Positions 4,285 through 54,600 are shown, counted from the stretch's first letter. The stretch is 64,000 nucleotides of DNA from Rozella allomycis CSF55 (GCA_000442015.1 KE561265.1:1-64000); one strand, 5' to 3'. Program-made: numbers and translations. The notes: generated by a model from the sequence alone, not told the origin.

Positions 4285-7200
4285 AAAACACTCAAAAAAC
4301 ATATCAAGTATCATTTCCTCACCGGATATCTTTGTTTCAGCCGACGACAAGAAGGTAAGGTGGATGATGTATTTAGCAAAGGTGTCTGTCAATTCTTTGA
4401 ACGGTGATTCGCTATTGGAAATTACAGTTACTAATGTTCCTCGGGTTCTTAAAGTAATATTTTATAAAACATTTTTGCAAGTTCATCAATTGCAAAGGAA
4501 AAGAGGCAATTTTGTTTTCGTGTGTAGGAAGTGCTACATTTGTATACCTGGATTCTCTATTGACAAGTTCTTTTGAATTGTGCAAAGATGAGATAATTGA
4601 CGTGATTTATTTCAACGACTATGTTTATGGAATATCTATTCACGGTTACTTGTATCGCACTCACTGGCGTAATCATGCAAATAGGATGATTACAGAGGAT
4701 CCTAAAACTATCGACAAGGTACCGATTAGAAGAAAAGGTATTTCCGCGGCATTATTTTATGATGCAAAATTAATTGTTGGATTTGACGGGAAAATTGAAA
4801 TATTTGCAATAGAGGATCCAGAGGTAAATGAAATTTTGTTTTTAGATGGCAGGAAGCTATTGATGAAATTATTGATTCGCGAATCAGTCACATAAAGGAC
4901 TTATCAGTCAAGAAAGGAGTAGTTTGGGTTGTTACAAAATTGTAATAGTTGAATCATTTTGATATTATTGAAATGGACTTTTATCTTTCAAAATTAGACT
5001 GAAGAGATCTGATTATGTATTTAAAGATGATTACTTGGTAATTTTGTCCCTCTAGTCAGACAGGCTTTTTACAAAGAGTCGGACGAATTGATCTTTTATA
5101 AATTGAATGACAATATAGATTATCCTCTGATGACGTATAATGCCAAAGGGAACATAAGCTCGTTTGACGTTTCTAAATCATTGGTAATTTTTTTTCGTAA
5201 TATTAATGGATATCAATTTTATATGAAGATGGGCGAGTTTCCACTGTAGTGTTTAGTGATAAAGGTATACTAAAAGAAATTTGGACAGTGGTAAATGACG
5301 TAGAAAAACTGAAAAGGAATGCCCGGGGGCAATCAAAGTTTTGAATAATCAGACTGTAGTTTCAATTGTTTGTGAAGGCAATATCATTCTATATTCCGCC
5401 ATGAACGGTCAAAGTAATTCGCTAATTCTCTAAACAAAAGAAATTGGAATCATAAAGCACGAAAACGTTAAGCAGTTTAGACTTTTCTCGGAGTTTTTCA
5501 TTTCCATAGCCGGCAAGGACATTGAATATTATGCTCTGAATGGAAATTTACTCCATTCATACAAATGTGACGACAGCATAAATAATTTCTGTGTAAATTC
5601 AAACGGCTCGAGGATCTTATTTACTATTGCGGGAAATGAAAATATTTACATGTATAAACCGAGCAGAGTTATTCAACTATCAATAAAGTCTAAAGTAGAA
5701 AGCTGCTACTTTTTTGGTGAATTAATAGGTTTAAAGGAAAAGAATAATCTTGAAATTTATTCATGTGAAGAAGAAAATGTTGATCCTGCCACTAATGGAG
5801 AATGTTTTAAAGTTTGTCAAGTAAATTTGAAATCAAGTTCAAATTCCTTAATTGACATTTATAAAGGCGCAAAGATTGCTATTTTATGTGATAATAAAAT
5901 TGAATTTGAAGAGTTGATTTTGCCTGAAAAGAAGGTTGATCAAATAATTCCCTTGTTTTACTTAAATCGATGTCAAGAAATGATGAAAATGGGTGAAAAG
6001 ATGAAAGAAAGGAAGTTTTTTTCTAAACTAAATTCGATTGCTGAATATTTTTTGTTTCGATTTAGGATTCTACATGCTAAATACTTTTATGGACTTGCTG
6101 GCAACATGGCCAATGCCATGGCTTTAGAATTGTTGTTTAATCCGAATAAAGCGTATATTAGAGGTTTTATTTACTACTTGATGGCAGATTATTCTAGAGC
6201 GCAAGTAATAAATAGTAGTTGCTTAATACAAGGAATGGTTTTTAAAGTCTGATACACCAAAGCAAGCCCTTCAAATGAGAATTGAATTGAAGAACTGGGA
6301 ACAAGCCCTAGTATTAGCGCAGCGACTAGATGAAATTCAAATACCTAAAATATTAATCAACTATTCTCTTGAATTAGAACGTGAAGAGCAATTTACTGAC
6401 TCTTACAAAATGTGCCTAGAGGCTTTGTCAATACCCTCACTTGGCGATACTGATCGAATTGAAGCAACTAAATGTCTAATTAGATTGTCCTTTAGAATGG
6501 GGAATATCACTAAAGGAAACGAACTAATGAATACAGTGAATCCAGAAAAGTCTTTTGTTTTAGATTGTGCTGGTTTATTAAACCAAATTTGCCAATTTGG
6601 AGAGGCCGCCAAATATTTTGAATCAGCAAATGATCTTGAATCTGCAGCTGAATGCTATTTAAAAGGTTATATTTTTCTTATATCATAATTAGATAAGAAT
6701 TATTCTAAAGCGAAATCATTAATTCGTCATGTAAAATCAACAAAGGCTTTAATTGATTACGGAAAGGCTATGCTAGGTAAAATTAGTAAATTTTTCGGAA
6801 TAGATTGTGGAGATTTTGAGGAAGCGATAAAAGCCTTTGAAATAGTGAAAGATTATGACAAAGTGGTTAAAATAACTCTATTCAATCTAAATGATCCTGA
6901 AAGAGTATCTTTAAAAATTTTTAGTAATAAAGGCGAAAGAAATTGTCAGAAGAACAAAGTCAAAGAATGGCGCGAAAATGTTGGCAAACTACTTTTTTGA
7001 AAAATCAGATTTAAAGTCTGTCGTTGAATTTTATTTGACTGCTGGGTTAACAAGAGATGCATTTGAAATCGCCCAAACGCAAGGACTAGTTGTCTTTTAC
7101 GCTTCACTGATTGAAGATCCATCCATTGAAGAGCTAAATGATCTTGCTATATATTTTATGAATAAAAGAGACTATTACAATGCCGGAGTATTCTTTTTCA

Positions 7201-8403
7201 AGGCCAAAGACTATGTTAAATCGATTAAAGCATTTATTCAATGTGGAAATGATCCCAAAGCACTTGATATTGCAATTGAGGCTGTTGGATTGGCTAATAA
7301 CAATGATTTGGCGCATCAGTTGATTGATCATTTGATTAATCAGAGTGATGGATCACCCCATGTAAATTTTATTGATTACTTGAATTTAGGAAGCAAAGTA
7401 TATTTTCAGACTATATTCATGTTTGGGGCAGTACAAGGAGGCCATTAAAACAATCCAAGCTATTTCCATGGATGAGCAAGTGCAAGGTAATTAAATTTAT
7501 CAAGATATTTAATAGGAAACTATAAAATAGCGCATCAGCATCTAGTGGATTGTATATCCAACTTGAAAGATATGAAAATACCATTGGATTTTGAAAACTC
7601 ATTTATTCTTCTTCATTCATATCTTTTAATAAAAGTAAAAAATAGAATTGCTGAATAGAGAGTTTAACTAGAATTGATGAGCATGAATTGGCAGCAAGAA
7701 TGTTATTGAGAGTGTGTGGAGGGTTAACGAGCTTTCCATTTCGTAAGCTGAATGATATAAACTGAAAAGATTCTGGGGCTATTCTGACATCTACTGTGAT
7801 TCAGTGTTTAAAAGTGAATTTGAATAAATCTGCCTATGAAATTGCACTGATAGCCATGAGGGCAGAGAATAGAAATAGTATTGATTCAAAGTTTAAAAAG
7901 AGAATTGAAAGTCTTGTGAGGTAATTATTTGAACATTTAAAATAAAGACATCCAGATAAAGATGCTGTGGATGTAGAAGAAGAGATTTCCAGATGTATTA
8001 ATTGTGATAGTCTAGTTAAAATTACAAGTTTGGAGTGTATGTCCTGTAGAGAGAGAATGCCGATGTGTATTCTGAGTGTAATTGATTTGTGTGTTGTTGA
8101 TAGGGAACCCATGTAGATGGTAATTGTGGATTGTCTCTTTGTTGTTCACAGACTGTGAATATAAAATATGCTGAAAAGTATATTTCAGAGGGTCTTGGAT
8201 GTCCATTTTGCAGAAAGGAACTATTTGAATATCAAAGAGTCAATGTCAAGGAATATATAGCTGAGCGACAAAAGAGATTGAAGCCAATTGAAAATGGTTC
8301 ACTTGTGCCATATTTGCCCCACAAGGGATCATCAAGTGAAAGTTTTGAGATGAATTTATCAATTGACAGCGAAAGAAGAGCTCGCGTTAGTTTTGCACAA
8401 TAA
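4285..8403 (+). CDS. WDR19: Intraflagellar transport protein IFT144/WDR19, multi-exon, probably 5' partial
   Basis: The spliced C-terminus reads LLHSYLLIK...AARMLLRV...ILTSTVIQC...MRAENRNSIDSKFKKRIESLVRHPD, followed by Cys clusters. About 18 mini-introns traced. Confidence 0.88.
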
Positions 8404-8481
8404 AACCTTTTAAAGCCTATTAGTTTGAAATGAATTTACATGATCTTAAATTTACTGAAAAATCGTGATAAATTAATTTTA

Positions 8482-11928
<3,447 letters not shown>

Positions 11929-12217
11929 TTTTAACAAGGGTTTCCAAAAATTTATAAAAATACCTCGATTAGCTGCTCCAAATTTGAATGTGAAATAATA
12001 TATATTAATGATTTATAATGATTTAAAATTAAGTATTACGAATGAGATCTCGCGATAAAGGTAATACTACTAGTACTGCTTTGTTGAATTAAAATTTAAT
12101 TAAATAANGAATTAGAATTTAATTAAAAATAAATAATAATAGGCTTTCTGTTTTTAAGTTTTAAATGTACATTCAAGTAATCTCGTGTAAAACTTTTTTT
12201 CTCCCATTCGCCACTTC

Positions 12218-15190
12218 ATGGAATATTATCCGCCCGAAAAGATTAGAAATATCTGCATCTTGGCACACGTAGATCATGGAAAAACTACACTCTCTGATAG
12301 TCTTATAGCTACAAACGGTCTAATCTCTTCAAAAATGGCTGGAAAACTTAGATACCTTGATAGCAGACAAGATGAACAGGAAAAAGGTATTCTTATTATT
12401 AGCACATTATAATAGGTATCAAAATACAATTATATTTATAGGGATCACAATGAAAAGTAGCTCTATCGCTCTAAAATTTTCACTAATGTCGGCAGAGTCG
12501 AAGCAAGGTATATAAACTATGTGAATTTTAATGCAAGATTACATGGTACATGTAGTTGACTCTCCAGGACACATTGATTTCTATGGAGAAGTTTCCGCCG
12601 CGTCCAAACTTTGCGATGGATGTCTAGTTCTAATAGATGTCGTAGAAGGTGTGTGCACACAAGTAATAAAAATCATGTAATAAAATAGACAATATCAGTA
12701 CTACAGCAAGCTCTAAGAGACGATTTAGTGCCAGTTCTTGTCTTGAACAAAATTGATAGATTGATATTAGAATTGAAGCTCACTCCTATGGATGCATTTA
12801 CTAAACTCTGTCAGATTATTGAACAAGTTAATGCACTAACTTTTACATTCATCTCTCATAAGAATGTAAGATCTATCTGTTCTGTTTTCTAGGCGGCAAA
12901 GGAAATCGGAGTCGAAAATTTTGAATCAAGTGTGTACCACTTTTCACCTGCCAAAGGAAACGTTATTTTTGCGAGTGCTATAGATGGTTGGGCTTTTAGA
13001 ATAGAGCATTTTGCTAAATTCTACCATGAAAAGTTGGGCTTCAGCGAATCTGCTCTATGTAAAGCTCTGTGGGGTTACCACTATTTTGATGCAAAAAATA
13101 AGCGTGTTGTTTCCAGGAAGCAGGCTGATGAGATTGGGTTAACAAGACCATTATTCGTACAGTTTATTTTAGAAAATATTTGGCATGTTTATGACACAGT
13201 CATGAGTAGAGTGTAAAAATTGTTGAAAAATATGAAATAGAAACGTTGAAAAGATTGAAAAAATCATTGAAACCTTGAAAATTAAAGTAATTTGATTTCT
13301 TTACTTCGATAGGTTCCCTTAAGGGACTTTAGATCAAAAGAGCCTAAGGTTTTGCTTGAAACAATCTTCCAACAATGGATACCATTGTCCTCGTGTGTTC
13401 TATGTAATGTTTTAAACTTAACCAATAAAGTAACTGTGGTCAAAAAGATACCAAGCCCAAACGCCTTGCAAGAAACAAAGTTCGAAGGCGTTCCTGAATA
13501 CACGAAACAGATGATTAAATCATGCGATAAACAAGGATCGATAATCGCGTACGTTTCAAAGGTAGTATCAGTTCCACTCTCTAACATTCAACTAACCAAA
13601 CCACGTGATTTGTATAATCCAGAGATCTCAATTGCCATGTCGCGCATATTTAATGGAACTATAAGGGTTGGTGATTTTTTAAGCATAATAGATGCAAAGG
13701 GGGAAGTACAAGAATCTCAAATGGTGCATAGCTTGTTCATGTTTATGGGGAAAGATTTGAAGCAAGTTGAGATATTGCCGCCCGGTCATATTGGTGGAAT
13801 ATATTTTGAAAACAATAAAATATTCAAATCGGCAACGCTTACCAATGACAAAAGCGTTTGTTCTTTGGATTTTTCCAATAACCTGCCAAATCCGATTGTT
13901 AGAGTAGCTGTTGAACCAGAAAATCCCAGTATGTTTATGATATTTGAGTTAATAGGCGAATTAGATAAACTTGTTCAAGGGTTGAAACTTTTAAACCAAG
14001 CCGATTCAGTTGTAAATGTTCTAGTGCAAGAAACTGGTGAGCATGTCCTATTGACCGCTGGGGAGTTGCACTTGGAAAGATGCATTCGAGATTTGACAGA
14101 TACATTTGCCAAAATAAAAATTCAAGTTTCTCAGCCAATCATTCCCTACAGGGAAACAATTGTTTCAGAAAGAGGTAAAAATGATCAGATGAAAAAACAT
14201 AAGTGACTGATGAAATAATTGTAGTAAATGAAACGCCGAATCGACAAATTTTATTTAAAATTAGTGCGAAACCCCTTGAGAAGGAAATATCTGAATATCT
14301 ATACGCANACAAGGAAATATCTGAATATCTATATGCAAAAGAAAATGATGAAAAAAGTTCTGTAGACGACTTGAAAAAGAATATTGAAGGCAAAATAGGG
14401 TAGCTGTAATTTTTTCTTTAAATAGGAAACAAATTGTAGCGTTTGGGCCGAAAAAGATAGGAACAAATATATTGACTACTGAGCAGCCGATTGAAAAAGA
14501 TATCGAATCTTCTATAGTGAAAGGATTTCAGATGTGTTGTGAAAAGGGACCTTTGTGTGATGAACCAATGAATGGTGTATTATTTGTAATCCATGAAATA
14601 AATAGAAATGATGTATGCGAAGGTAAAATAATAAAAATGTGACCAAAAGAATCAACTAATTTTGGTCCAATAACAGGACAAATCATCTCCACATGCAGTA
14701 CAGCATTTAGACAAGCATTTCAGAAATGGTCCCCAAGATTGATGTTGGCAATGTACACTTGTGAAATACAAGCTACAAATGAAGTTTTGGGAAAAGTTTA
14801 TAATGTACTTTCGAAAAGAAGAGGACAAATATTAGGTGAGGAAATGAAGGAAGGTAGTTCATTCTATACTATAGAAGCAATGATTCCAATTGTGGAGAGT
14901 TTTGGGTTTGCGGATGAAATGAGGAAAAAGACTTCTGGAAATGCGCATCCACAATTATTGTTTAAAGGCTTTGAGATTCTAGACATAAATCCGTTTTGGA
15001 AGCCAAAGACGACAGAAGAATTGGAAGATTTGGGAGAGAAAGCAGATAAAGAAAACTTAGCTAAAAAATACATGGATCCGGTTCGAAAAAGAAAGGTAGG
15101 CGAAATTCTCAGTGATAAAAATAGGGACTTGCTGTCGAAGAGTTAGTTGTTACTCATGGCGAGAAACAATCCACACTCAAAAGCAAATAA
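12218..15190 (+). CDS. RIA1: Ribosome biogenesis GTPase Ria1/EFL1 (EF-2-like)
   Basis: [51 protein letters not shown] and [12 protein letters not shown] motifs. 12 introns traced; a short duplication at the N near 14308 is an assembly artefact. Confidence 0.93.
12387..12441 (+). other. Compound 55-nt intron made of two abutting GT-AG units (29+26 nt)
   Basis: ag|gtattcttattattagcacattataatag|gtatcaaaatacaattatatttatag|gg. Removal restores the conserved DEQEKGITMKSS. Confidence 0.8.
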
Positions 15191-15357
15191 AAATAAATAA
15201 ATTTTTACATTTTCTTAAAATTTAATCAATGTAGTACACCATTAAGTTGGTTAACTTGAGAATTTCTCTTTAAACTACTTCTACATTGAGACGTAGCTTT
15301 CCAGAGGGATAGAACACTAAAATTTATAAATGCCAATTATATTTAAGTTAAAATGAT

Positions 15358-17102: not shown

Positions 17103-17696
17103 ATGAACATCCGTCAAGCTAGAGTACACGTTTCTAAAAGCTTAAAAGTAGATAGATGACCTTTCCGCTGTACAAAATTGCAACTTGCACAATCTACCAG
17201 AAAACTATCAAATGAAATATTACTATTATCACCTTCTGTCGTGGCCACAATTGTCCTACGTTGCAGAAGACACAAAGGGAAGAATAATTGGCTATGTCTT
17301 GGCGAAAATGTAAAATATTTTTTCAATCCTAAATTTAGGGAAGATGATATGGATGCACAAAACAGTCAAAGTGTTCCACACGGACATATCACTTCTCTAG
17401 CAGTTATGCGTACGTACAGGAGGTTGGGCGTTGCCCAAAAATTAATGACTTTATCACGTAATTTTGCTTTTATTTTATTAATCTGAAAACGCAATGAGAG
17501 ATGTATTCAATGCTAAGCATGTTTCTCTTCATGTACGAAAGAGCAATAGAGCTGCATTCTCACTATACAAAGAAACACTTGGATTTGAAATACATGAAAT
17601 AGAAAAAGTAAGCAAATATATAACTTCTTTAGAACACAGAAATATTATGCGGATGGAGAAGATGCGTACGCAATGAGAAAATATTTAGATAAATAA
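17103..17696 (+). CDS. NAA10: N-alpha-acetyltransferase catalytic subunit Ard1/NAA10
   Basis: Spliced sequence MNIRQAR...[11 protein letters not shown]...HGHITSLAV...[12 protein letters not shown]...[11 protein letters not shown]. 4 introns, one requiring a TG acceptor. Confidence 0.95.
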
Positions 17697-17792
17697 AGTC
17701 ATACATTTTCTTTTTAATAATTGATTTCGACCAGAAACTCGGCCTTTAATTGAGACCTTGCCTTTATAGGAAAGTAGGCAATTTCCCAATTG

Positions 17793-18917: not shown

Positions 18918-18940
18918 ATTTTTATGCATTTACATTTTTA

Positions 18941-20056: not shown

Positions 20057-20075
20057 ATAGCTTTATTTTTACCCC

Positions 20076-21364: not shown

Positions 21365-22510
21365 ATGTTAAGGGTTGGCTTAGTAGTCTCGTCATCGGAT
21401 GTTGATTCATATATCCCAAAACATGGAAACAGAGTAGGAAAATAATGATAATGTTTTAGGCATACTTAACCCACAGTCTTATTAAAGGGTATAATGTTCC
21501 TGTTATACCTTTGAAGGCCCCTAAAGCTACAAAGAAAGAACTTTTAAATTTTCACGATGAAGAATATATAGCTGCAATATTTTCTGATGATGAGAATGAG
21601 TGCGAAGGGCTTTTTGGCCTAACATACGATTGCTTTAAGTTCTCTGGTCTAAAGCATTATTGTTGCACAATCGCAGGTGGGTCTATTTATGGCGCAAAAC
21701 AGCTACTGAATGACAATTTGGATACAGTTATTCATTGGGAAGGTGGTAGACACCATGCCTTCAGGTGATGACCAAAAGCACTCAATAAGTTAGAGATTTC
21801 GCTTCTGGATTTTGTTACGTCAATGACATCGCTTTAGCTATTCATGAAATTTTATTAAACATTAAAGGGAATATCCTTTATCTTGATTTAGATGTTCATC
21901 ACGGGGATGGGGTAGAGCACGCCTTCAAATACACTAAACGTGTTACTACTTGCTCTTTCCACCTATTTCATCATGGATACTTTCCTGGGACAGGGTCATG
22001 GGATGATTGCACTAAAGGTTCCATGAATGTGCCTTTTACAGCCGATCAGCATACTTTATGGAAAGATGCTATTCAATACACTATATCTAACTTAATATCT
22101 ATTGTTTCTCCTGAAGTAAGACCTTTATTTTGAATATATTGATTTTGATAATACAGTTTGGCGTTGATACTTTGAAGGGTGATCCTATAGGGCAATGGTG
22201 CATAGATCCATTAACCATTGCTTCTGTAATGAATTTCTTAAATGGGTTTTCAATAAAAAAGATGGTTTTGGGAGGAGGTGGATATAGTCCTTGTGCTACA
22301 GCAAAGGCTTGGGCGATGTTAACTGCCGAGGCATGTCATATATCACTCTCAAATGAAATACCCGTATTTGATGACTGGGATCTATTTTCCAAGGAACCAT
22401 ATTTGTATTCTACAGGCTTTGATCGCACTACTTCTAATCAAGAAGTGGATTTCAAAAGTTCATTTCTGAAAAAACAAATAGATTTATGTTTAATGAAGCA
22501 ACGGAAATAA
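21365..22510 (+). CDS. Class I histone deacetylase (Hos1/HDAC8-like)
   Basis: FGLTYDC, WEGGRHHA, SGFCYVND, YLDLDVHHGDGVE, YFPGTG, QFGVDTLKGDP and LGGGGY motifs. Confidence 0.88.
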
Positions 22511-23494: not shown

Positions 23495-26052
23495 ATGAGC
23501 AACAAATCCTCTAATAAGTCAAGTACCTTGCGTAAAGGAGGAGGTGGCCTGTTGGCAAGACTGGTAAATTTTATCGACATATGACAGCGAGGACGGTCAT
23601 GATTCAACTTCTTTGACTACTTTCGAATCCAAGGATTCTAGATTTTCTGAATTGAACGATGTCGGATTAATTAAGGATGACTCGCCCATAATGTGTCGAT
23701 TGTGTGAAGACACAATTAAAAAGTCGTGTGTTCATGAGCACACTAAGTATTGTGTTCTTATGTGCCAATGTTTCACAAGAATTAATGAATACAACGACCT
23801 CTTATTACATGTATGAATCCCAAACTATTTCGATAATAGGATATAACAGAGATAGGAAAAATAATGTCGAAGAAAGAGTTTGAAGTAAAACAAGTTCTTC
23901 TATTGCGATAGCCATTTGTGCAAGACCTGAAGCAATTAATAAATATATACCAATAGTAGAAAATCATTCGACAACAGATTTAGTTTGTTGGAAATGAAAA
24001 ACGTGGAGTCATCAAATCAAATTAAAATTATGTGGCAAGGCTTTAATTGGTCTAATATCCCTGAAGAAATACCAGATAATGTCTCAAAATATAGAAATAT
24101 CTTGGCGAATCTGGTAATTTAATGAAATGAATAATACAGATTGGAAGCAAAGTACATGTTCTTCGAAAACTCAACTTTTCAACACAAAAGCGAAACGAAG
24201 TAACCTTAAAAACAAGTGAAAACAACGACGCCGAAATTGATACATCTTTGGGAAAAAATCAATCAACTTTTAAAATAGAAGTACGATTTTATGCACAAGT
24301 TTCATTAGATCGAACCTTCTATAAATGATTTTGAATTTGTCAAAAAGCTGAGTAGAGGGGCGTACGGGTAATGATTTGCTCATGTTTAAAAATATAGACG
24401 AGTCTACCTTGCCAAAAAGAAATCAACTGGCGATCATTATGCGGTGAAAGTAATCAGTAAGAGGCACATGAAGAGCAAGGCGGATGTTGAAAGGATATTG
24501 CTGGAAAGAAATATATTAGCGATGGTCGACAATCCTTTTATTGTTAAATTGTTCTATTCTTTTCAAACATTTGATCAACTTTATATGGTGATGGAATATT
24601 TGAATGGAGGGGATCTCTTGTCATTACTTGAAAGTGCTGGGCACTTTGGAGAGTCTTGGGCTCAATTCTATACTGCCGAATTAGTACTTGCTGTAGAACA
24701 TTTACATTCCCTCGGGATAGTACATAGAGATATTAAACCACAGAATCTATTAATAGACAAAAGAGGGCATTTAAAGTTAGCAGATTTTGGGCTTTCGCGA
24801 ATGCGTACATAAATTACTTTTTATTGACATAGATGACTCCACAGTAGTGAAGTAATTTCTATATTTACAAGGATATTACAACAGAGCCAAAAACTGATAT
24901 TGAAATATGGGTCTCAGGTCTCAGATTGAACGACAGAACTTCAGATAATGCTTCATCTGGGTTAATTATGCCCAAAACTAATTCTTTCGTTGGTACTCCG
25001 GAATACCTGGCCCCAGAAATGCTCTTGGGATCAGGATATGGTAAAATGTGAACTTTAATTGTGTTCCTAGATGAATCCGTTGATTGGTGGGATGTTGGAA
25101 TTATTCTATATGAAATACTAGTCGGAAACAATCCATTTTATGATGATGACGTAGAAAAGACTTTCGAAAACATTCTGAGCAGAAGTATGAGCTTAAATTT
25201 TAATTGAAAGAATTTACTTGGCCTAAAGGTGTTTCTTCAAGTGCCATGGACATTCTTGATGGCCTTTTGACAGTTGAACCAAGCGATCGATTAGGGTACA
25301 ATGGTGCGGGAGAGATTAAAAAACATTCATTTTATAACGGAATCGATTGGGACAATATATCTAATGTACAAGCAAGTTTTATTCCCATTCTTGAAGGGAA
25401 TGATGACACTAGATACTTCACAGGCACTCAGTGGAGTCAAGACTCCGTGTTTGAACCTCATGACAATGAAGCAATTGAAGACCCATTTCTTGATTTTACG
25501 TACATAAATGTTAAGCAGCTTAAAGAAGTTACAAAAGATCAGATAAGAAAAAAGGCAATTATAAGAGAGGATTCTCTGAAAACAATCTATAGTGATGACG
25601 TTTTGGGTTCCAATCATAAAATAAAGGATGGCGCAAAAATTCTAGTTGAGAAAAAAGAGCTTTGTTGCTTGATTGCAGAAGACAATCCGATAATTCAAAA
25701 GGTGGCACAAGCCCTGCTAAAGAGCATTGGATTCCAAACAACTTGCGTTGATAACGGACTAAAAGCTGTAGAAGAATGTCAAAAAGTGAAGTTTGATATT
25801 ATTTTCATGGACATAATGATGCCAGGTATAATTATTACTCATTACTCATTAGAAATGGATGGCATAGAAGGAACAAAAATCATCCGTTCAAGCAAAGGAA
25901 TAAATGAAAAGTCTCCTATTGTAGCCTTCTCTGCAATAGGCTCCGATGAAAATCGTAAAGAATTTATCTCTCAAGGATTCAATGATTGGCTTGAAAAACC
26001 CTTCACCAAAAATGATCTTTATAAAATGATCAAGAAATGGATTCACGAATGA
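23495..26052 (+). CDS. RIM15: Rim15/Cek1/Greatwall-like AGC Ser/Thr kinase with N-terminal C2HC finger and C-terminal receiver domain
   Basis: CRLCE...HEHTKYC; kinase motifs PSINDFEF..LSRGAYGRVYLA, HRDIKPQN, DFGLS and FVGTPEYLAPE; receiver domain AEDN...FMDIMMPEMDG...KP. 12 introns. Confidence 0.75.
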
Positions 26053-26238: not shown

Positions 26239-28854
26239 ATGAATTTTATTGCAGATGGATCTTTACTAGAGGAATCCAAAGAAAATATTGTACCAAATCC
26301 TCATGGTCACTCTGCTATTTCGTTGCAATATGCTATTCAACACAAAAATGATTATGCTAAAGAGAAGGCGGAATTCCTTGCCTATATTCAATCTCAAAAG
26401 GAATCTCAAGAATATGAAGATGATCCACTTGACTTGTATTACCAATACATAAAATTTCTTCAAGAGTTTATGGCCACTGGCGCTGTAAATTATCCAGATT
26501 GGATGGAGGGGCTGGAACTAGTTACAAAAGCTTTTGTAGACGATAAAAGGTAATTCTATGCATAATATTTAAAACGATATGCAAATGATATAAGGTACGT
26601 TTATGTTTGGTGTTTGTATGCCAAATGTTGTATAAAACCAGAAGAAGTATTTGAATTCATGCAGTTAAAAGGAATTGGGGAATGCTTGAGTATATTTTAT
26701 GAAAAATATGCAGAATATTTAGCTCAGCGACTGCAAAGGTAAAGCGTGGGAAAGTTAGGCAATTTAGATATAATGATGCCTTGAATATTTTGGATCAAGG
26801 AATTAAATCCAAAGCAAGTCCGTTAAAAAGACTAGTGAAAACTCATGCCGCCTTTTCGTTACAGATCAGTCAGATTCCAACGGAGTCCAAAAAGAGGACC
26901 ATTCAAGGGATAATGCTTGATATGCCTAACCAAGGGAAGAAGAAACAATCTTTTACTGTTTTTCAGGATGAAAAAGAAAGTTATACCAAAGATAATACAA
27001 AGAATTCCTGGTTTAAAACTGCCGATATCTTTTCGAACGAACTACTACACAAAGTAAATCATGCTTGGTTAAATTGATGATAGGAAAATATAAAGCTAAG
27101 TGTACCATGGATGGGCGTGAAAATCCCGCAAAAGAGATCAATATCTGTGGTGCACAAGCCACCAAGTTTTGCGGTTTACAATGATACTCAAAAATATGAA
27201 AGAGATGCTAAATATTTTTCAGCTGAAGAAAAGAGAGCAGAATTTTATTTTTCAAAGAAAGAAACTCTAGTTGTCAAGGAGGCCAAGAAAATGGATGCAG
27301 TCCCATCGCCTACAATTCACACTAAAGAAGCTTTAAAAGATATCATGGGAATGTTTAATGACGAAATAGAAACGAAAGAAGAAACCAAAGAGAAGATTAT
27401 TCAGGACACGCCAAACAATCCCTTTTGTTGTCCTGTAGGGGATGTTGATGAACAAAGGACGAGAAAGAAATTCAAGCCATCAAAATTTGCGATTTTTAAA
27501 GATGCCCAAACACCCGTAAAGACTCCAACTAAACGCGGGACTCTTGAAATTTGTGTCAATTTAAGTACCAAGCAGATAAAGACATTAAAAACTGATATTA
27601 CTGTACCAAAATTGCAAATAGTGCCAGTCGATAAAGATGTAATTCTTTGGAATAATGAATTGATTCAAAGCCATTCAGAGAAAGTTTTACCCTTGATCAA
27701 ATCAGATGCATGCGCCACATTCTATGAATGTGATTTTATTCCTTTTTACGAAAACTTTGAGAAAATGAAGTCAAATTCGATGCCATTTTATTTTAAGCTT
27801 GATAATCATCTATTGTACGCCGTTCAATATAGAATAGGTGAAGGAGGATTCGCATCTGTTTTCATGGCAGATCAAGAAATTACAACACCGACTTCAATGA
27901 ATGCGAATTCGGTAATTTTAAAGCTTCAGAAACCTTCTTGTCTTTGGTAAAGATTTTAACGTCGAGTTGAAAGGGAATTTCACATTTTAAAAAAACTTCA
28001 AGATGAAAACATGCATGTTCCTATTGTTAAATTATTTCAAGGCCATTTCTTTAATCGAATGAGTTGTTTGTCGTTGGAATATTTGGAGCATGGGACAATT
28101 TTAGATTCCATTAATGCATATCGCGCCAAAGGGAATTTTCTCCCTGAACAAATCACTGCTTATTATTCTCTTTGTCTTATTAGAATGATAAAATATTTAA
28201 TTCAAAATAACGTAATTCATTGTGACATCAAAGTACTTTAATTTTTCTTCTTTAATAAGCCCGAAAACATTCTTGTTAGATTCAACGCAGACACTAAAAT
28301 GCCCATGATGGTGAGCGAACACATCGATCCATACATTTTTGATTTATGGTTTCAAAGACACGAATTAGTTTTAATAGACTTTGGAAGATCCATTGATTTG
28401 GATTTGTATTCCCCAACAACTAAATTTAATGTATTCCATGAAGGAATTCATGAAAAGGGAAGCATTGAAAATTTGGTTTCCGCATTTCAAAAAATTCACA
28501 AATCTTGGCAACACGAAGTAGATTTTTTAGGTATGCGAATAAACAATGCTTAATTCAGGTATTGGGAATTCTATTCATTGTCTATTAAGCAATGATTACC
28601 CTGACCTTAAATTAACACCAAATAGATTAGATTTTGAATTTATTCTTAGAAGATCATTAAAATACCCTTGGGAAGTTCTTTTGAATAAGTTAATGCATCC
28701 CCCTTCAGATAAAGGTGAATCTCTTTGTCTACTCAATGATTTGGAAGGAGAATGGAGCATCATTTTGAATTCTGAATGCTTATCAAAACCTTCCTGGCGG
28801 CAAATCCTAAGAAAACACGAAATAGAATTAGTTCAAAAGTTAACTGAAAAATAA
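26239..28854 (+). CDS. BUB1: Spindle checkpoint MadBub (Bub1/Mad3) kinase
   Basis: KEN box (ESKENIVP), TPR region (DDPLD, YANDIRY), GLEBS-like FSAEEKRA, CMI motif PSPTIHTKEA, and kinase motifs GEGGFA, HCDIKPEN and IDFGRS. Confidence 0.92.
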
Positions 28855-31474: not shown

Positions 31475-31547
31475 GCCCTGATAGCTCAATCGGTAGAGCG
31501 TGCGGCTTTTAACCGCAAGGTTCGGGGTTCAATCCCCCGTTGGGGCG
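31475..31547 (+). tRNA. tRNA-Lys(TTT)
   Basis: Cloverleaf with GCCCTGA/TTGGGGC acceptor stem, TGCGG-CTTTTAA-CCGCA anticodon arm and GGTTCAATCC T-loop; T-run terminator downstream. Confidence 0.95.
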
Positions 31548-37227: not shown

Positions 37228-37300
37228 TAGCAGCGCCAAGTTTCGATCAAGGGACCTCTGAGTTATGAGCCCAGCGCTCTTCCAACTGAGCTACGCTGCT
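37228..37300 (-). tRNA. Initiator tRNA-Met(CAT)
   Basis: A1:U72 acceptor stem AGCAGCG/CGCTGCT, anticodon loop CTCATAA and initiator-type T-loop ATCGAAA; T6 terminator follows. The T-stem has two U.U mismatches. Confidence 0.88.
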
Positions 37301-39764: not shown

Positions 39765-39773
39765 ATGTAATTA

Positions 39774-40904: not shown

Positions 40905-40921
40905 TATTGTGAAAAATCAGA

Positions 40922-44091: not shown

Positions 44092-44152
44092 ATAAAATAT
44101 TTAAATGAAAAAAATAAATCACGATTTTTATTTGTGGTTTCTTTAGGCCTTT

Positions 44153-45123
44153 TTATCGTTGATTTTTCATTTGTTGGGCTTTGCGGAGTTTCATCAAAAT
44201 TGTGTTTTCGAATTCATCAAAATTATCAAGAAAGTTTTTTTCTAAATTTAAATTCTTCTTTTCTGTTTTTTCTTCATCAACTTTCTTTGCGATCATTGGA
44301 GCGCTTCCTTTGGCCCAATTGATTGTGAATGGCTCCAACCTTTCATCACCCTCGCTCTTTTTTGAAATTACATAAAACTACTCAATATTTAAATATAAAT
44401 TTACAGCTTCTGTTGTTGTTTTGAATAAAATCACTGCACTTGGCTTCGTAGTCGACATTACTAAATGCTCAACCATCCCATAATCATTAAATAAGTGAAG
44501 TAGCATTTCTTTATCATATGAATCTATATTCAACCATTTAATGTGCAATGTTCTATCCAATTCAGATTCCTTTTGTTTTTCTAATTCTACATTCTCTTTG
44601 GAATCGAAATATTTTCTCAGCAGAATATCTTCTTCTTCTTTAATCTTTTCATACCCTTGTCTTTTAAGTTCGTTTAACTATTTAATCATCTATCTAATGG
44701 TTACTTGCATTTGTCTTTTAACTTTCTCTTCATACTCCTCATCTTTTCTCTTTTTAAACGCAGACTCTCCATTAACAAGTTCTACTCAAACTAATTATTA
44801 ATTCTTACTGTCCATCATTCTCTTCCTCACTGCATCCATTTCAGCATCTCTCTTTTTTCTTTCCAATTTCGCCTTGTACATTTCATCATACTTTTTCCTT
44901 GTTTCAGGATTATTTAACACATCAAATGATTTTTTAACCAACAGAAACATCTTCTCTATCTTCTATCACTAATAAAAATACCTGCATCAGGATTATCTGG
45001 ATTCTTGTCTGGATGATACTGCAATGCCTTCAAACGATACGCCTTCGATATATCCTTTTCATTTGCAAAGGGTTCAACTTGCAACAACTCATAAATATCC
45101 TGTGAAAAATCAAACTCTGACAT
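44153..45123 (-). CDS. CWC23: Spliceosomal J-domain protein Cwc23/DNAJC17 (J domain + RRM)
   Basis: DIYELLQV...[19 protein letters not shown], coiled coil, and an RRM beginning TLHIKW...LFNDYG. 4 introns. Confidence 0.8.
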
Positions 45124-45182
45124 AAATACAAATGTGGCGCTGCATTAGGTCTAAACATTTTTAATCTATTCGAAAATATTTA

Positions 45183-46607: not shown

Positions 46608-46934
46608 TTCGTGTGGGGAGCTGGCATGATATTTATATAGAGATTTGAATGAGCCAATCGTTTAGTGAGGGACATGCGGTACCACTTTTGTCTGCCTAAA
46701 AATAGGCTTGAAACAGATCGTGTCCGTGGTGGGTTGTGAGTAATGAGTTTAAACCAAAGACAAAATCCTTTGTTGAGTTTATGAAAACCAATTACTTTGA
46801 GTGAGTCGATATTTTTCTAAATACGCATATGTGCCCTGAAAAGTGAAAAGAATTTATTTCACAATTCCAAATAACTATCACACTGAATAAGCTCTGTCAA
46901 ATCAACATTAGAATTTAGATTTACTTTGCCACCA

Positions 46935-49900
46935 ATGGAATCAACGAGTGTCAAAGTGGCGCTCCGGATCCGCCCTTTATCAACGAGCGAACGTCTGAGC
47001 GACTGTTCTGAATGTATATTTGTGCACCCTGACGAAGCGAACCAGGTTGTGTTGGGGCAGAACCGCAGTTTCACGTTTGACCGGGTGTTCCCTAGCGAGA
47101 GTGACCAGAGATATGTGTATGAGGGGGTAGTTGAAGCGATGGTGAAAAAGTTTTGCGAGGGGTATAATGTGACGATCATGGCGTATGGACAGACGTGCAG
47201 TGGGAAGAGTTATACGATGGGGACTAGTTTGGATGGGAATGAGGATGAAGATGCTGGGAGCCAAGGTATGGAGTTGCGTTTGTGGAGAGATAGGTAAGAT
47301 GATGGGAGGGGAATTGTGTAGGTAATTTGGAGGTGGGTGGTAGAGTAGGTGTTATATCGAGGGCGATTGATACGTTGTTTGGGATTGTTGGGGACAAGGA
47401 GCACGAGATGCGAGTTACGTTTGTGGAGCTGTATAATGAAGATATTGTTGATTTGTTTTCGCAAAAGAGCAAGTCGATCCAGATAAGGGAGGATGTGAAT
47501 GGCAGTATAGTGCTTGTTGGAGTGACTGAAGAGAATGTGAGGAATGCGAGTGAAGTGATAGAGTAAAATGAATTTGAAACAAAAAGTAGATTGATGAGAC
47601 GTGGATTGTTGAATCGGAGTACGGGGAGTACTGATATGAATTTGGTGTCATCGCGGTCGCATGCGATATTTAGTGTGTGTTTGAGACAGATGCGTGATGG
47701 AGTGAGTGTGATATCCAAGATGAATTTTGTTGATTTGGCAGGATCTGAGAGATTGAAGCGAACGAATGCGACTGGCGATCGGGCTAGAGAGTCAATTTCA
47801 ATCAACTCTGGACTGTTAGCACTTGGGAATGTGATCTCAGCGCTGGGAGATGAGAGCAGGAGGGGTGGACATGTGCCTTATAGAGATTCCAAGTTGACGC
47901 GACTGTTGCAGGTAACAATGATGAAGTTTGATGAAAGGTAAAAGAAGAGAGGGTGTTAATGAAAGGATTCACTTGGAGGCAATAGTCAGACGTTGATGAT
48001 GGCGTGTGTGTCACCTGCTGATAGTAATTTTATGGAGACGTTGAATACGCTAAAGTATGCGAATAGGGCTAGGAATATAAAGAACAAGGCGATGATTAAT
48101 GAGGAGAAGAGTGAGATTGAGCAGTTGAAGATGCAGATAAGGATGTTGAAGAATGAGGCAGGGAGGGAAAGGAATGTAGAGATTGAAAAGGAGATTAAAG
48201 AGATGAAATTGGCGTTGATTGAAAAGGATGAAAGATTGAAGAGAGTTTTGGAAGAGTTGAAAAAGGTTGAAATAGAAAAGGAGTGTTTGAAGTTGGTTCA
48301 TAAGGGAGAAGATGTAGAAGAAATGATAAAGAAGATTAAAGTTCATGTTGAGCCAATGATTAATGATTACATTAAAGAGATTCAAGAGTTGAAATTTATG
48401 CAAAGTAATGTGAAGAGTGCTAGTAGTAGGGATATGCAAAGCATTAGTAGTACTAGTAGAGATATAAGAAGCAGTGGAGACTCGCCAATTAATGGTAGTG
48501 GGGAATTACTTTTACAGAATAGTTTGATTAATAAGAGTTTAACTTTGAATAAATCTGAGAGTTTTAGTGGAGATTTGATTTCTAGTTTTGAAAGAATAAA
48601 TTTGAATGAGCAAGAGAATAAAGAGAGATTGGAGAGAGTTGAGAATGATATAAATTTAAAAGAGAGATTGGTAGAAAAGTTGAAATTAGATCAAGAAGAA
48701 TATGAAAAGATTATAATTGAAAACACCCGAAAGATGAATGACTTGATGCAAGTTAGAGAAGGCGATGATTTTAATGACAAGTATAACGACAAGGCTAGTC
48801 TCTACAGTCTCAGTACAAACTCTAACCTCAATAACCCTGTTAATAGAAACTTTAAAAGTAATTCATCGAATGCATTGGTTGAATTGAAAAAGAAACATCA
48901 ACAAGTAAAAAGAATAAACTTAAATTAAAAAGGATTTATTGATTGCAATGAAAAAGACAAAGGCAAATGAACAATTGATAGAATCAATGAAGAATTCAAT
49001 ACAAAATCTAAAGAGTGAGAAGATCAAATTAATGAATAAAATTAAGCAAGAAAATAATAAATTTAAATTAATTGAACAAAACAAAGAAATGGAAATTAAA
49101 AGATTGAAAAGAAAAGAAGCAAAACAAAATTCAGAAATTAAAAAATATTTCAGAAATTTAGAAATTAAAAATAATCTACTTGAAAGAAAAAATGAACAAG
49201 TTTTAAACTTTAAAAATAAATTAAAATTAATGTTGAATAGTAAAAAAAGAATTCGCAAAAATAATTTCAAACTAGAAGATTTTGAAGACTTGGGTGGTGA
49301 AAGGGTTAAGAGAGTAGAAAGTGATATTGAGAGAGTAGAAAGGGTAGAAGGTGATAATAAGAGAGTAGAAAGGATAATAGGTGATATTGAAAGGGATAAA
49401 CTTACTAGTGTCAGTGGGAGAGATAAACTCACTAGTGAGAGGGATAAGCCTACACTTAAACAATACCCTTTACCAATGTCTCTTTCATCAACAAATTTAT
49501 CGTTGGCTGATTTGTTGATTAATAATTTAATAAGAGAATTGGATGAATGCGTAAAGATTAAACAACAAGATCAATTAATGAATGAAATGATTAGATTCAG
49601 AGAAAGATTAGTTTCAGAAAGAAATAAATTACTTGATAAAATTTATAATGGAAAAAAAGATTTAAATCTAGAAAAAGATCTAGAAAAAGATTTGGAAATT
49701 TTAAATTCTCAAATTTCTTTTCTAACAAATGAAAAAATTAAAGAAATTCAAAATGAAATTTGTTTAAATTCTAATTATTCTTCTTTTGATGATTCTCTTT
49801 CTAATCTAATAAATATTCTCAAATCTCTATCTGTCAAAGAAGCTGATGAAATATTCAGATTCATCATTGAAGAAATTGTTAATCTCAAAATATCTGAAAA

Positions 49901-51194
49901 GACTTTGGAAATGACAATCAAATCTTTAAAAGAAGCCATCAAAGGTAGTGAAGTAGGAATTAGTGGGGAGGGTGAAGGTGAACTAGGTGAGGGAAGAGAA
50001 GGGGTAAGTGAGGGAAGAGAAGGGATAGAAGTGGATGCAACGGTAAGTGGAAGGTTATCAAGTGAAGGAGTAAGTGGAAGTGTAAGTCAAGAAGTGACGC
50101 GTGAACCTCTTCTTCATGATTATTCTACAACTGTAGAATCTTTGAATAAAAAAGTTAAAAAACCTTCTATTAAAACTTCTTCTATTGATCCTTCTAAATG
50201 GGATTGTAAATCTATTCTAAAAGGTCACATTGGTCAGGTTTATTCTCTATTCTATAACAATGATAATAAATTATATTCAACTTCTCAAGATTCTTCTCTA
50301 AACATCTGGGATTTGGATTCTGGAAATTTACTAAATTCTATTTCATTCAAAGAAGGGCCAATTAAATGTCTCAAAATAATAAACAATCTCCTAATCATCG
50401 GTCATCAATCTTTCATCAAATTATTTGATCTATCCTCTCTAAAATTAATAAAACAATTATCTCTCCACTCAAATGACATTGAATGCTTCTCTCTAAACAA
50501 CAACAATTCCATTCTATTCTCTGGCTCTTCTGATTCTACAATCTCTATTCTAGATCTCAATTCTTTCAATTGTCTAAACACTCTCTCAAATCACAAAAGT
50601 TCAGTCTTTTCTCTTCAATCTCACAACTCTTATTTATTCTCTGCGTCTAGAGACCATTCTGTTAAACTCTACAATTTAAATTCTTTCGAGTACATTTCCA
50701 CTCTCTATCCTCCTCACTACGATGCTGTCCAATCTTTATGCATCTCTCAAAATTATCTCTACAGTGGATCGCGTGACTATTCTCTCAAAGTTTGGGATTT
50801 AAATCACATAAACAATGCTATTGATAATAATTCAGTTGCTGTTAATTCACCCATTAAAGATTCAAAGTCTTTTACTTTTGATGACGCTATTCCCAAAAGC
50901 ACATCTAATCAAATTACATCTAATCCTCTTTTAATTCCCATCAAACAAACAATATATTCAGCTCACAAAGATTGGATCAAAACTATCATTCCTTTTCACA
51001 AACAGAATCACATTGTTTCAGCATCTAGAGATGGTATTATAAAACTATGGGATACTACAAATCAATCAACTCTGGTTCATGAACAGCCCCTTCACTCTGC
51101 TTCTATAAATGATCTTTGTTTGTTAAATTCAACCCTGGTAGCTTCATGCTCTTCTGACAGAACTATAAAGATTTGGAAACCCAATCAATTGTGA
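46935..51194 (+). CDS. Kinesin-4 family KIF21-like motor (motor + coiled coil + WD40)
   Basis: [31 protein letters not shown] and [19 protein letters not shown] motor motifs; C-terminal WD40 repeats including PPHYDAV and AHKDWI. Confidence 0.9.
47266..47348 (+). other. Compound 83-nt intron made of three abutting GT-AG units (28+28+27 nt)
   Basis: ag|gtatggagttgcgtttgtggagagatag|gtaagatgatgggaggggaattgtgtag|gtaatttggaggtgggtggtagagtag|gt. Removal gives SQGVISRAI, the kinesin GIIPRA motif. Confidence 0.78.
47912..47965 (+). other. Compound 54-nt intron made of two abutting GT-AG units (26+28 nt)
   Basis: ag|gtaacaatgatgaagtttgatgaaag|gtaaaagaagagagggtgttaatgaaag|ga. Removal restores RLLQDSLGGNS. 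Confidence 0.82.
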
Positions 51195-51654
51195 ATGCTA
51201 ATCAATTTTAAGTTTGTAAATAAACATTTTTCATCATTTCTTTATTGTAGTCAAAGTTTATTTATAGTCGTTTTCCTTTCATTTTTTGTTGTCAAGGAAT
51301 TATTTACTGAAGAAATGGAAACTCGCTCTTTACAAAGGGCACTCGAAAAATCTTCTTTACAATCTATTTCTACTCTACATGACTGTTGCAACAAGTTACA
51401 GCAATTGGGATTAACAGACAGTCAAGATGAGAGAATTGATAAACCTGAATTTGTTTCACGATACAATGATCATGCTAGAATTTTAATTAATCCTAATGAC
51501 AATCTTGCTAAAATTATTGTTTTCATCAACGAACACTGTCAATAAATAGAAATTATTACAAGCAGAATATCTAAAAGAAGAATATCAAATCGTAAAAGTG
51601 TTTAAATAATCAACACAAATGGTACAAATGGAAATTGAGATTTATTTCATCGTC

Positions 51655-54600
51655 TTATTTCAGAGCTGCCTTTTCACTAGCCAACGCCAATCTATCCTTG
51701 AATCAACTAAAAACATTTACCTTCTTATATTCTCAATACATCCAGCAGCAGCCTCCTGCAACTCCTCATCTCTAGATCCAACCATTCCAAGCAGCAACTG
51801 CACTACCCCATTCTCATGCATCGACACACAATTATCAGCATCCTTTGACAACTGATGCAACGCCTGCGCAGTCGATCTATGCACCTTCTCATCAGGCGAC
51901 TTCAAATACTTCACCAACGGCGCTACAGCCCCCGCACTGCCAAACGCTACCCTATTATTCCCCCATCGGCAGCATCTAGCAATCGCTTCAGCTAAATGTT
52001 TGCGCAACTTGTCGTGCTTGGTTGTTGTCAGTTTCGCTAACAGTGGCACTACGCCATGGTCAGTTATCACCGCCAAGTTTTCCTCTACAGTCATGTGATA
52101 TAATTAATTATACCGTCTTTGGCTATATTCGCTATAGCAGCACACACTGATGCTAGAACCTCGGTGTTTTCGGATTTCAACAAACTCACAATCAATTCCA
52201 GTCCTCCGACAAATGATCTGACCATTTCTCCAGCATCTTTCGCATTCTCTATACACGGAGAAATGGCCCAGGCAGCACTCGCTTGGACATTTGGATTTGG
52301 GGATTTCAATAGGGACCAGAGCAATCGGACACCGTCTAAACGGTCTATTATTGCCATAGAGTCGGCTATATAATACTTTAAATCACTATTTACCGTCACA
52401 TGCACATACACCAACGGCAGCTGTTACATTTACAAGGAGCGCTTGGTTGGTTCCAGTCAACAATCCAACCAATGGTGTGATCCCGTTACTCTCTCTGATT
52501 GCAGCCCTTCCTTCCGCTTTATAAATGAAAACTTTGTATTTTACGAGATTTAGCACACGCACCAATTGCACCCACGATATTGACGAGAACATCTTCCGGT
52601 TGGTCTGCTATCAACCCAACTAGCTTCTTCACTGTCTTTAAACTATTAAATTTATCCACATTTTGTGCTATTTTAGAAGCTTTAAAATATTACGTGAATG
52701 AGCACATTTCCAAATTGCTCCCGTTGATGCAATCAAAAGTTCTCGATTGCTCTTGTGGTCTAATAGCTGTACCAGTGGAGCGAGGCCACCGTGTTCATTC
52801 ACAAGTACTCTGGTCTCCTCTAAAGTAAATCGCACTATTTTCAATTACCGTCTTCAGCACATTTAAATATTGCGCTCGCGCAATACGCTTGGAGTTCGTG
52901 ATTTTGACTCGATAAATTTTCTACAAGGAAGCGAATTATCCCTGAAGATCTAATTGAAACTCGATATTGCGCTAAAATTGGTATTGGACGTATTATTTAC
53001 GGTCTGATGCACATTCTTGTAAAATTCCTACAACAGGTATCAGAAGATCAACATTTTTAGATTTTAATAGTTCGGCCAAAAGTGGTATAGATCCAGACGC
53101 GCGAATGGCATCCTTGTTCTTGTCACTTTTACTGCAGCTGCAAAGTGCAAGCGCTCCACATCGAGCGACGTTTTCATTTTTAGATTTCAATAATCTTATC
53201 AGTCTTCTTATACCGCCTTCCTTTCTCACCATTCTTCTATTTGTCGCTTTTAAAATAACCAACAATAGTTACCATTCTTTGCGCAATGTGATATTGTTTC
53301 AGCTGCTAGACATCTTAAAATTTCTTCGTTTGACTCACGCAGGAGTTCTACAAGTGGATGAATACCATTCATTTCCGCGACTGAGCGTCGAATATGGACT
53401 ATCTTTATTTCAATGTTGTTGGTACCATTTTTTGTAACTTCTTTTAATATTTGAAGCGCCCCCACTTTACATTTCGGATCATCAGTTCCTAGAAGGTTTA
53501 TTAAGACTTCTAAACCACCCATATCTCTAATGGCGATTTGGTTATGATCAAAAACAGATTATATAATTGCTTACCATTTGTTAAATCAAGATCTTTTATG
53601 GCGCACAAAGTTATAACCGTGGCTGTTTGGTTTCCAATTTTTAGGTACTTAATTAACTTTTGGATCTGCCAGTATTCAGGTGGCGCTTCAGCTACAATCA
53701 AATTTTGAATAACGCTTTACTGCCTTCTTGTCTTTTTTCAGATACTTCATCATCTGTTGAGACTTGTTCTGGATCTGAATCTTCATCCTGGTGGGCATTA
53801 TGATGTCGATTCTTCAATTGGGTCTTTTTTCCACTTTCAGGCTTCAGAGGAATTTTATATGTTTGCTTTTTCATACATAAAGTATCTTTACTCTTTCCTC
53901 CTCAGGAGCATCAATAGGTTGTGTCAAGCTCACGTCTTTCCATCTTAGTGAAGGTTGTTCTTGCGTATTTGAGACCCTTGGGACATTATTATTTCTGAAA
54001 ACAAGACAGGTAATTAGTTACTTTTTTCTTTGCGCTGCGTTGGGTTGTAGTTTTGGTTTAAGTAAATCTCGAGATCCTAGAACCTCTTTTTCGTTCCTTT
54101 TATCGTTATTATTAAGCTTTTTCGTTTCATTCAAGTTATTTCTTTTTTCATTTTCTTTACAATATCATAAATCTTAATACCATTTGATTTGACAGTAGCA
54201 TCTTGGTTGTCAATGTTCTTCGCAAAATGTTGACTTTTGGCTCGCAACAAATTGATCAAAGAATTATATATCTCGCTATCTTTTTCGTAGTTTAAATTTG
54301 TTTCTCCATTTTCATCCTTAACGTAACCTTTGTTAATAAAGTAGCCAGATTGAGATGCTGTAATAACAATCCGTTCTTGGTCAACTGGACTTACAATTAT
54401 GTACGCCAACTCTCCGTGTATTTGGCGCCAAGGTGGAACTCGATAGCCATTTGCAAACACAAGAGCTATAAAAAGAATACTACTTCCTTACGGTTTTCCC
54501 AATCAATGGATTTCAATGAGCAAGTAGGAGAATTGCCGCAAAATGTTTTTAGCAATTTCACTTCATCGTTAACCTTATTCATGTTTAGAAAGACATTGCT

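Follow-up and report, generated by a model that had tools for sequence, protein, structure and literature searches.

Candidate non-AG 3' splice sites in the ultra-short introns of conserved Rozella allomycis genes

Introduction

Few signals in eukaryotic gene expression are as constant as the AG that closes an intron, and the way in which this AG is checked is still studied via yeast mutants and cryo-electron microscopy (cryo-EM). Can a wild organism do without it in conserved genes? The question is raised by a stretch of 64,000 nucleotides (nt) from Rozella allomycis CSF55 (GCA_000442015.1, KE561265.1, positions 1-64000; the whole stretch is referred to here as the window). An initial annotation of the window proposed that seven very short introns end at TG, CG or GG rather than AG, always followed by an exonic A. 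If true, this organism would routinely use UG or CG to join the exons of essential genes, and would provide a natural test of which contacts at the 3' splice site are indispensable (the G at -1, perhaps the A at +1) and which is dispensable (the A at -2). Minimal intron length would also be linked to the fidelity of the second splicing step, and the sites would be a marker of spliceosome change en route to the microsporidia. Gene finders that accept GT-AG introns only will break or skip such genes, as in the public model of a WDR19 gene in the window.

Results

Seven introns without a nearby AG

The window was modelled with a dynamic-programming gene finder. The final run, in which the seven non-AG introns were admitted by hand, contains 35 gene models and 141 introns; the intron counts are approximate, as a few false joins of adjacent genes remain. 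On either strand, the lengths of candidate introns that bridge open reading frames peak sharply at 26-29 nt, and introns of this short class are called modal below. Lengths of 26-32 nt account for 132 of the 141 modelled introns, and 93 of the 141 start with GTAA.

We located all seven proposed introns within positions 4942-53574, using three-frame views and the gene finder. As the initial annotation described, both strands are represented (five introns on the plus strand, two on the minus strand), and the ends are TG/A in five cases, CG/A in one and GG/A in one, where the slash marks the proposed junction with the downstream exon. Two lie in a WDR19/IFT144-like gene on the plus strand: intron A, a candidate (4942-4970, 29 nt, GTAATA...TTG/A, phase 2), and intron B, an ambiguous candidate (5184-5209, 26 nt, GTAATT...TGG/A, phase 0). 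Also on the plus strand are intron C in a class I HDAC gene (22116-22141, 26 nt, GTAAGA...TTG/A, phase 0), intron E in a Mad3/BUB1 gene (26550-26576, 27 nt, GTAATT...ACG/A, phase 2) and intron G in NAA10/ARD1 (17458-17485, 28 nt, GTAATT...CTG/A, phase 1). Intron D, in a HEI10-like RING gene (zf-RING_5; 21157-21132, 26 nt, GTAAGT...TTG/A, phase 1), and intron F, in ODAD2/ARMC4 (53574-53549, 26 nt, GTAAGC...TTG/A, phase 1), are on the minus strand. In C the position of the end is known to within 3 nt, and in D, E, F and G it is pinned exactly.

All seven begin with GTAAG or GTAAT and are 26-29 nt long, and AG is absent from every one between intron positions 8 and 40. The proposed end is in each case the first G at or past position 26, and the final triplets are TTG (four introns), TGG, ACG and CTG. 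The fifth donor base is G in three and T in four, never A; 44 of 111 canonical introns have A at that position, a hint that a weak 3' end may go with a stronger 5' splice site (~0.03 by chance).

For each candidate we enumerated as canonical alternatives all combinations of a GT or GC donor with an AG acceptor that would connect the two reading frames in question. The shortest such introns are 56 nt for A, 41 nt for C, 44 nt for D, 45 nt for E and 43 nt for G, none of modal length. Intron B has a modal-length canonical rival with a different donor (5197-5228, 32 nt, GTAATA...AAG/A). Intron F has a 29-nt rival (53555-53527, GTTTTT...TAG) and a 50-nt model. For A, C, D, E and G, canonical introns are thus at least 41 nt long; B retains its modal-length rival, and the 29-nt rival of F is rejected by homology (see below).

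Further non-AG candidates were rejected. At 47938 (plus strand), a 24-nt TG/A intron was discarded because the kinesin sequence LLQ/DSLGGN demands removal of 47912-47965, which is two tandem canonical introns. The candidate at 63141 (minus strand) is probably only a gene end. The one at 57245 (minus strand), a non-AG pick of the gene finder, is explained by a canonical GTGGGT...AAG intron at 57249-57221, and for that at 57614 (minus strand) a canonical 24-nt AAG end exists. The remaining non-AG picks lie at gene ends, on antisense strands or in intergenic sequence and were set aside.

Reading frames call for introns, homology places their ends

The initial annotation relied in part on the restoration of reading frames by the non-AG ends. 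When the gene finder was allowed one non-AG dinucleotide at a time, it picked TA 13 times, TT 10, TG 9, AT 8, and AA, CA and GT 7 times each, often with a shared donor and the end moved by 3 nt. Since TA, TT, AT and others are picked as readily as TG, open frames indicate that an intron is required, not where it ends. The weight of the case therefore falls on sites that are pinned by homology. In the homology test, exons were used as unaltered translations, and residue numbering was compared across each junction, with the disputed residues contiguous with the downstream exon.

In NAA10, residue 37 of the upstream exon matches residue 93 of the human chain and residue 2 of the downstream exon matches residue 98. 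The last two upstream residues, the split-codon Gln (c/aa) and the first downstream residue fill positions 94-97, with no insertion or deletion. The same gap-free numbering is repeated in PDB entries 4kvm, 4xnh and 5nnp, among them chains from S. pombe and S. cerevisiae. When scored with a profile of 84 of 120 listed orthologs (those of 140-200 amino acids), the 28-nt TG model reaches 302.1 bits, compared with 295.5 bits for a 25-nt intron, 294.0 bits for a 31-nt intron and 283.3 bits for the 43-nt canonical AG model. The canonical model thus costs 18.8 bits, and it loses the residues QNAMRD.

In the RING gene, the upstream exon covers positions 1-21 of the Pfam profile zf-RING_5 and the downstream exon covers positions 23-42. 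The split codon c/at supplies the His at profile position 22, giving the protein sequence C-S-H-I-F-C-S-A-C, i.e., C-x-H-x2-C-x2-C. Every canonical alternative is at least 44 nt long and deletes motif residues (the RING His and two Cys).

For Mad3/BUB1, the upstream match to the Pfam profile Mad3_BUB1_I stops at position 56, one residue short of the exon end. The downstream exon resumes at position 59 with 55 bits; with the 45-nt canonical model it resumes at position 65 with 42.3 bits, a loss of 12.7 bits and of the residues YANDIR. Compared with S. pombe Mad3 (4aez_C), upstream residue 125 matches residue 108 and downstream residue 1 matches residue 113, and exactly D, D, K and R fall between them, the Arg being the split codon ag/a.

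In ODAD2, residue 45 of the upstream exon corresponds to residue 481 of chains 7rro_H7 and 8j07_m7 (485 in 9cpc_1A), and residue 3 of the downstream exon to residue 487 (491 in 9cpc_1A). The exon upstream of the intron extends two residues beyond 481, and T, N, D and H follow that position, with no insertion or deletion. The split codon g/at encodes the Asp, after which the downstream stretch aligns with the solved chains. Both the 29-nt GTTTTT...TAG intron and the 50-nt canonical model are ruled out by this gap-free numbering, and QIAIRD would be lost. The predicted end of introns D, E, F and G is thus BG (B being C, G or T), its exact base fixed by gap-free homology.

The HDAC intron also has a non-AG end. 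The disputed residues LIIQFGVDTL align with HDAC8 residues 260-269 (VVLQLGADTI) and match the VVLQ strand right before the GAD metal-ligand motif. The downstream exon begins at position 231 of the Pfam profile Hist_deacetyl with 35.4 bits; the 41-nt canonical model begins at 237 with 29 bits, so the disputed residues are worth 6.4 bits. In-frame ends occur at 23 nt (TA), 26 nt (TG) and 29 nt (TT), and none is AG. A variable loop upstream prevents an exact residue count across the junction. On these alignments, intron C is certainly to be read as non-AG.

Thus, of the non-AG ends said to restore frame or motifs, five were verified (C, D, E, F and G), all but C to the exact base; canonical rivals persist for A and B. 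The proposed share of about 5% of introns is in line with our models, at 7/141 with all candidates admitted and 5/141 for the verified ones only.

The WDR19/IFT144 introns

Introns A and B sit in the poorly conserved N-terminal propeller of the WDR19/IFT144-like protein. A representative search with a 272-residue exon gave two weak matches, none covering the region of A and B, and a PDB search with exon 5064-5183 gave no WDR19 match. In a search for "longer" WDR19/IFT144 proteins only two matched, both near-identical and from Rozella allomycis CSF55 (96% and 100% identity), which places the window in this rozellid species or a very close relative. The small exons that flank A and B have coding scores that resemble those of verified exons.

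The frames at intron A can be joined only by removal of 4942-4970 or by the canonical 4942-4997 (56 nt), which loses NGLLSFKIR. No non-modular intron of about 56 nt was verified elsewhere in the window. Intron A (TTG/A) is therefore likely to be real. For intron B, the disputed exon piece has a codon score of +2.4, versus +0.1 for the extension made by the rival, a weak preference, and we give even odds that B (TGG/A) is real.

The public WDR19 model (P0118) omits 362 nt that score as coding. For NAA10 (17103-17702, plus strand), a search among stored proteins with a length of at least 92 residues gave none identical to the exon in the window. In both genes, public models thus appear to go wrong at the introns in question.

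Chance and boundary sliding

The base at -1 is G at all four pinned sites. Given that G occupies 12.6% of intron-interior positions (223/1776), this is expected by chance at ~2.5e-4. The base at +1 is A at all four, and A follows 55 of 134 canonical AGs (41%), so the chance expectation is ~0.03. The G-then-exonic-A context proposed for these introns is thus borne out at every pinned site, as BG/A.

Boundary sliding is impossible at A, C, D and G, where the upstream exon and the intron end in different bases and the intron and the downstream exon begin with different bases. A slide of one base is possible at B, E and F; it yields a 5' GG and still no AG.

A length rule for canonical introns

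We examined the choice of AG in a set of 111 canonical GTA...AG introns of 24-32 nt. In 107 of 109 introns the used AG is the first whose end lies 25 nt or more from the donor; with a threshold of 26 nt, this holds in 108 of 109. Twenty canonical introns contain an unused AG ending at positions 22-26, and all but two of these end at 22-24. The length ruler suggested by the initial annotation fits this behavior, as well as the stacks of modal units described below.

The accompanying proposal, that a G at a fixed distance is chosen, does not hold as stated. A G at position 26 occurs in eight canonical introns of 28-30 nt (seven times as BG, once as AAG), and all eight skip it for an AG located 2-4 nt downstream. 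Because a BG at position 26 is skipped when an AG is near, AG is preferred, and BG looks like a fallback that appears only where no AG is in reach. The rule should be refined to the first AG within a reach of 26-32 nt, otherwise BG followed by A. An apparent lack of G between position 27 and the used AG was dismissed as evidence, since the AG itself and the scarcity of G at -3 account for most of it (~2.4 expected, 0 observed).

The canonical introns have a mild excess of TNA at -4 to -7. A short distance from branch point to 3' splice site may be supposed from the intron length alone (26-29 nt).

Stacked introns

No single-unit intron longer than 32 nt was verified in the window; all long introns that were verified consist of stacked modal-length units, in support of a real ceiling on the length of a unit. 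The stacks are 50-89 nt long and comprise two or three head-to-tail GTA...AG units of 22-31 nt, without an exon between them, whose removal is demanded by conserved motifs. Two are in kinesin on the plus strand, at 47912-47965 (26 + 28 nt, at the LLQ/DSLGGN motif) and 47294-47343 (28 + 22 nt). One is in an EF-2-like GTPase (12387-12441, plus strand, 29 + 26 nt, at DEQEK-G-ITMKS), and one in USP7 (9845-9757, minus strand, 31 + 31 + 27 nt). The first two units of the USP7 stack are near-identical, which suggests that an intron was duplicated in tandem. Given a real length limit, removal of stacked introns would need to be stepwise (recursive).

A CIAO1-like WD40 gene (40610-40556, minus strand) has a 26-nt tandem duplication of an exon end plus donor (AACTAGAAGATG GTAATTCAATGAT...), which includes an N. 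The frame demands removal of 55 nt, and the first unit would end TG/G. Either an error of assembly or a stacked intron of very recent origin could account for the duplication.

Other features of the window

The window has a G+C content of ~33% and a very high gene density, and is read best with the standard genetic code. The presence of WDR19/IFT144 and ODAD2 genes fits a flagellated stage. For another gene, the closest relative under another name is from Paramicrosporidium saccamoebae (43% identity), with zygomycete fungi next. Two canonical introns have GTG donors (21765-21793, plus strand, GTGATG; 57249-57221, minus strand, GTGGGT) and both are required to retain conserved residues (HHAFR-DFASGFCYVND in the HDAC), so donors are not invariably GTA.

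Two tRNA genes were identified, at 31475-31547 (plus strand) and 37228-37300 (minus strand), with Rfam scores of 67.9 and 53.1 bits; a coding model that the gene finder placed across the second is wrong. A eukaryotic gene at 25204-26052 (plus strand) encodes a receiver domain of the response-regulator type (Pfam PF00072, 74 bits), which this parasite retains as a vestige of two-component signalling. Twelve isolated N bases are present in the window, some of them within introns or donors (e.g., GTNAAA at 59902), and the protein of a second assembly has scattered residue differences, identity in some exon pieces being 91-96%. Both could stem from allelic variation or from errors of amplification.

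Pfam scans of the window found no genes for Prp18, Slu7, Prp22 or Prp8. A metagenome scan with the HDAC exon gave no match, and a scan with an MRS2 alignment found four loci, none with a peak of tiny introns.

Discussion

A probable short reach of the spliceosome

Taking sequence and homology together, we consider it probable that the seven are ordinary major-spliceosome introns held to ~26-32 nt, which are joined at BG/A when no AG is in reach. 3' splice sites would be accessible to the spliceosome only within a narrow zone starting ~25-26 nt from the 5' splice site, and exons would normally be joined at the first AG within that zone. In the ~4-5% of introns without an AG there, ligation would occur at BG (mostly UG, also CG, perhaps GG) before an exonic A, so that messenger RNAs (mRNAs) would truly be joined at these sites. 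The G at -1 may be retained because, in the active site for ligation, it pairs with the G that begins the intron, and the exonic A may assist docking on U5 loop 1. Checking of the -2 base, a task of Prp18, Slu7 and Prp22 in yeast, may be relaxed, since no more than a few bases can separate the branch point from the 3' end.

Several points weigh against this interpretation. Canonical rivals remain for two of the seven introns (56 nt at 4942, 32 nt at 5184). The predicted protein of the second assembly (P0118) jumps from 4942 to 5303 and so avoids both A and B, although it is a prediction only. The preference for A at +1 is drawn from small numbers (4/4, ~0.03 by chance). Finally, there is no clear branch-point motif, YTRAY being found in only 32 of the 111 canonical introns.

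More broadly, in Rozella-type fungi, which among intron-rich lineages are nearest to the microsporidia, the spliceosome might no longer check -2 at all, a ruler of ~26-32 nt taking the first AG or else the first G before A. This would be a natural counterpart of a prp18 deletion, tolerable because of ultra-short introns and intermediate on the way to the microsporidian spliceosome, and the ruler would explain stacks that are removed one unit at a time. We offer this wider view tentatively, as possible rather than probable.

Alternative explanations

One alternative is that the BG sites are real but weak, so that splicing is inefficient or conditional and retention or decay of transcripts acts as a brake on expression, in place of the constitutive use that the initial annotation proposed. 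According to the available parts of one study (PMC10711555), yeast uses BG sites poorly unless Prp18 is missing, and the seven canonical introns of the window that skip a BG at position 26 whenever an AG follows in reach point the same way. However, the genes concerned are conserved (NAA10, Mad3/BUB1, a class I HDAC and an outer-dynein-arm docking subunit), with no second copy within the window. We regard such a brake as unlikely.

A spliceosome that accepts AG only would instead use longer canonical introns or other donors, and the proteins would lack the disputed residues, or such transcripts would be the main product. An in-frame canonical model is available for all seven introns (A 56 nt, B 32, C 41, D at least 44, E 45, F 29 or 50, G 43). 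The first downstream AG is in frame in three of seven, near the chance expectation of one in three, and nothing contradicts the canonical reading of A and B. Against this, in C, D, E, F and G the canonical models remove or alter residues with gap-free alignments to Pfam profiles or solved structures, and the single-unit introns of more than 32 nt that most of them require have no verified precedent in the window, where long introns are stacks. Strict use of AG is thus quite improbable for the set as a whole.

A third possibility is that the non-AG ends are assembly errors or unresolved variants, and that the true genome has AG. The twelve single N bases indicate an imperfect consensus, and the second-assembly protein is 91-96% identical in some exon pieces. 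Nevertheless, seven hits would be needed, all at -2 among ~141 such positions, and all would have changed A to B with the G at -1 kept. Open frames run for up to 1068 codons, and the exons align cleanly with orthologs. Sequencing error is very unlikely as the source of the seven ends, and we give an AG in the true genome almost no credence.

U12-type and AT-AC introns are a known source of non-AG ends, but a minor-spliceosome identity is ruled out here, as neither the [AG]TATCCTT 5' end nor the TCCTTAAC branch site occurs in any of the seven sequences, whose 5' ends and lengths match those of the bulk introns. Their donors are GTAAGT-like and their lengths are those of the major class; their 3' end departs from the major-spliceosome pattern, with AG rejected by homology in five.

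Comparison with known systems

The literature that we searched, with the original genome paper and its supplements outside that search, contains no report of non-AG or ultra-short introns in the Rozella group. A parallel in form is human: in 2007, in Genome Biology, Szafranski and colleagues reportedly described TG as a rare alternative 3' splice site of U2-type introns. Those are likewise GT...TG introns of the major spliceosome, but they are very rare and occur beside a normal AG, whereas in the window TG would be the sole site in reach and would serve ~3-5% of introns.

In intron length, the window resembles Paramecium, Stentor, Nyctotherus, microsporidia, mikrocytids, dicyemids and myxozoans, which have narrow length distributions at the lower limit of splicing (available parts of PMC10245619 and PMC13644364). 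Few internal signals and a gene-dense genome are also shared with these lineages, and parasitism is common to microsporidia and mikrocytids (same sources, in part). A 2026 paper names ciliates, microsporidia and dicyemids as exceptions with introns of less than 30 bp, and Rozella is not listed in the part available (PMC13644364). Non-AG acceptors, which set the introns described here apart, go unmentioned for ultra-short-intron lineages in the available parts of the two sources (PMC10245619, PMC13644364), and the term 'non-canonical' is absent from both papers.

In the kind of end, the sites match those used in S. cerevisiae without Prp18 (Roy et al. 2023, PMC10711555, available in part). There, BG 3' splice sites are activated genome-wide, AUG, ACG, UGG and UUG are used best, and use of CUG was confirmed by RT-PCR. 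The -2 base is likewise C, G or U and the -1 base G, with similar triplets (UUG, UGG, ACG and CUG). In yeast the sites are near the branch point (a proximity that intron length would imply for the window), and the accessible text proposes roles for an exonic A and for pairing with the first intron base, with exonic adenosines discussed as aids to the second step (PMC10711555). The difference is one of status. In prp18-null yeast these are low-level errors that are unmasked by mutation and compete with AG (PMC10711555, in the portion available), whereas in the window BG would be the sole productive site, in wild-type conserved genes. Slu7, in turn, is reportedly not needed where no more than 9 nt separate the branch point from the 3' splice site (PMC10158995, available in part). 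By analogy, the triplets and the presumably forced short distance in these Rozella introns appear compatible with the picture of Prp18 and Slu7 that comes from yeast.

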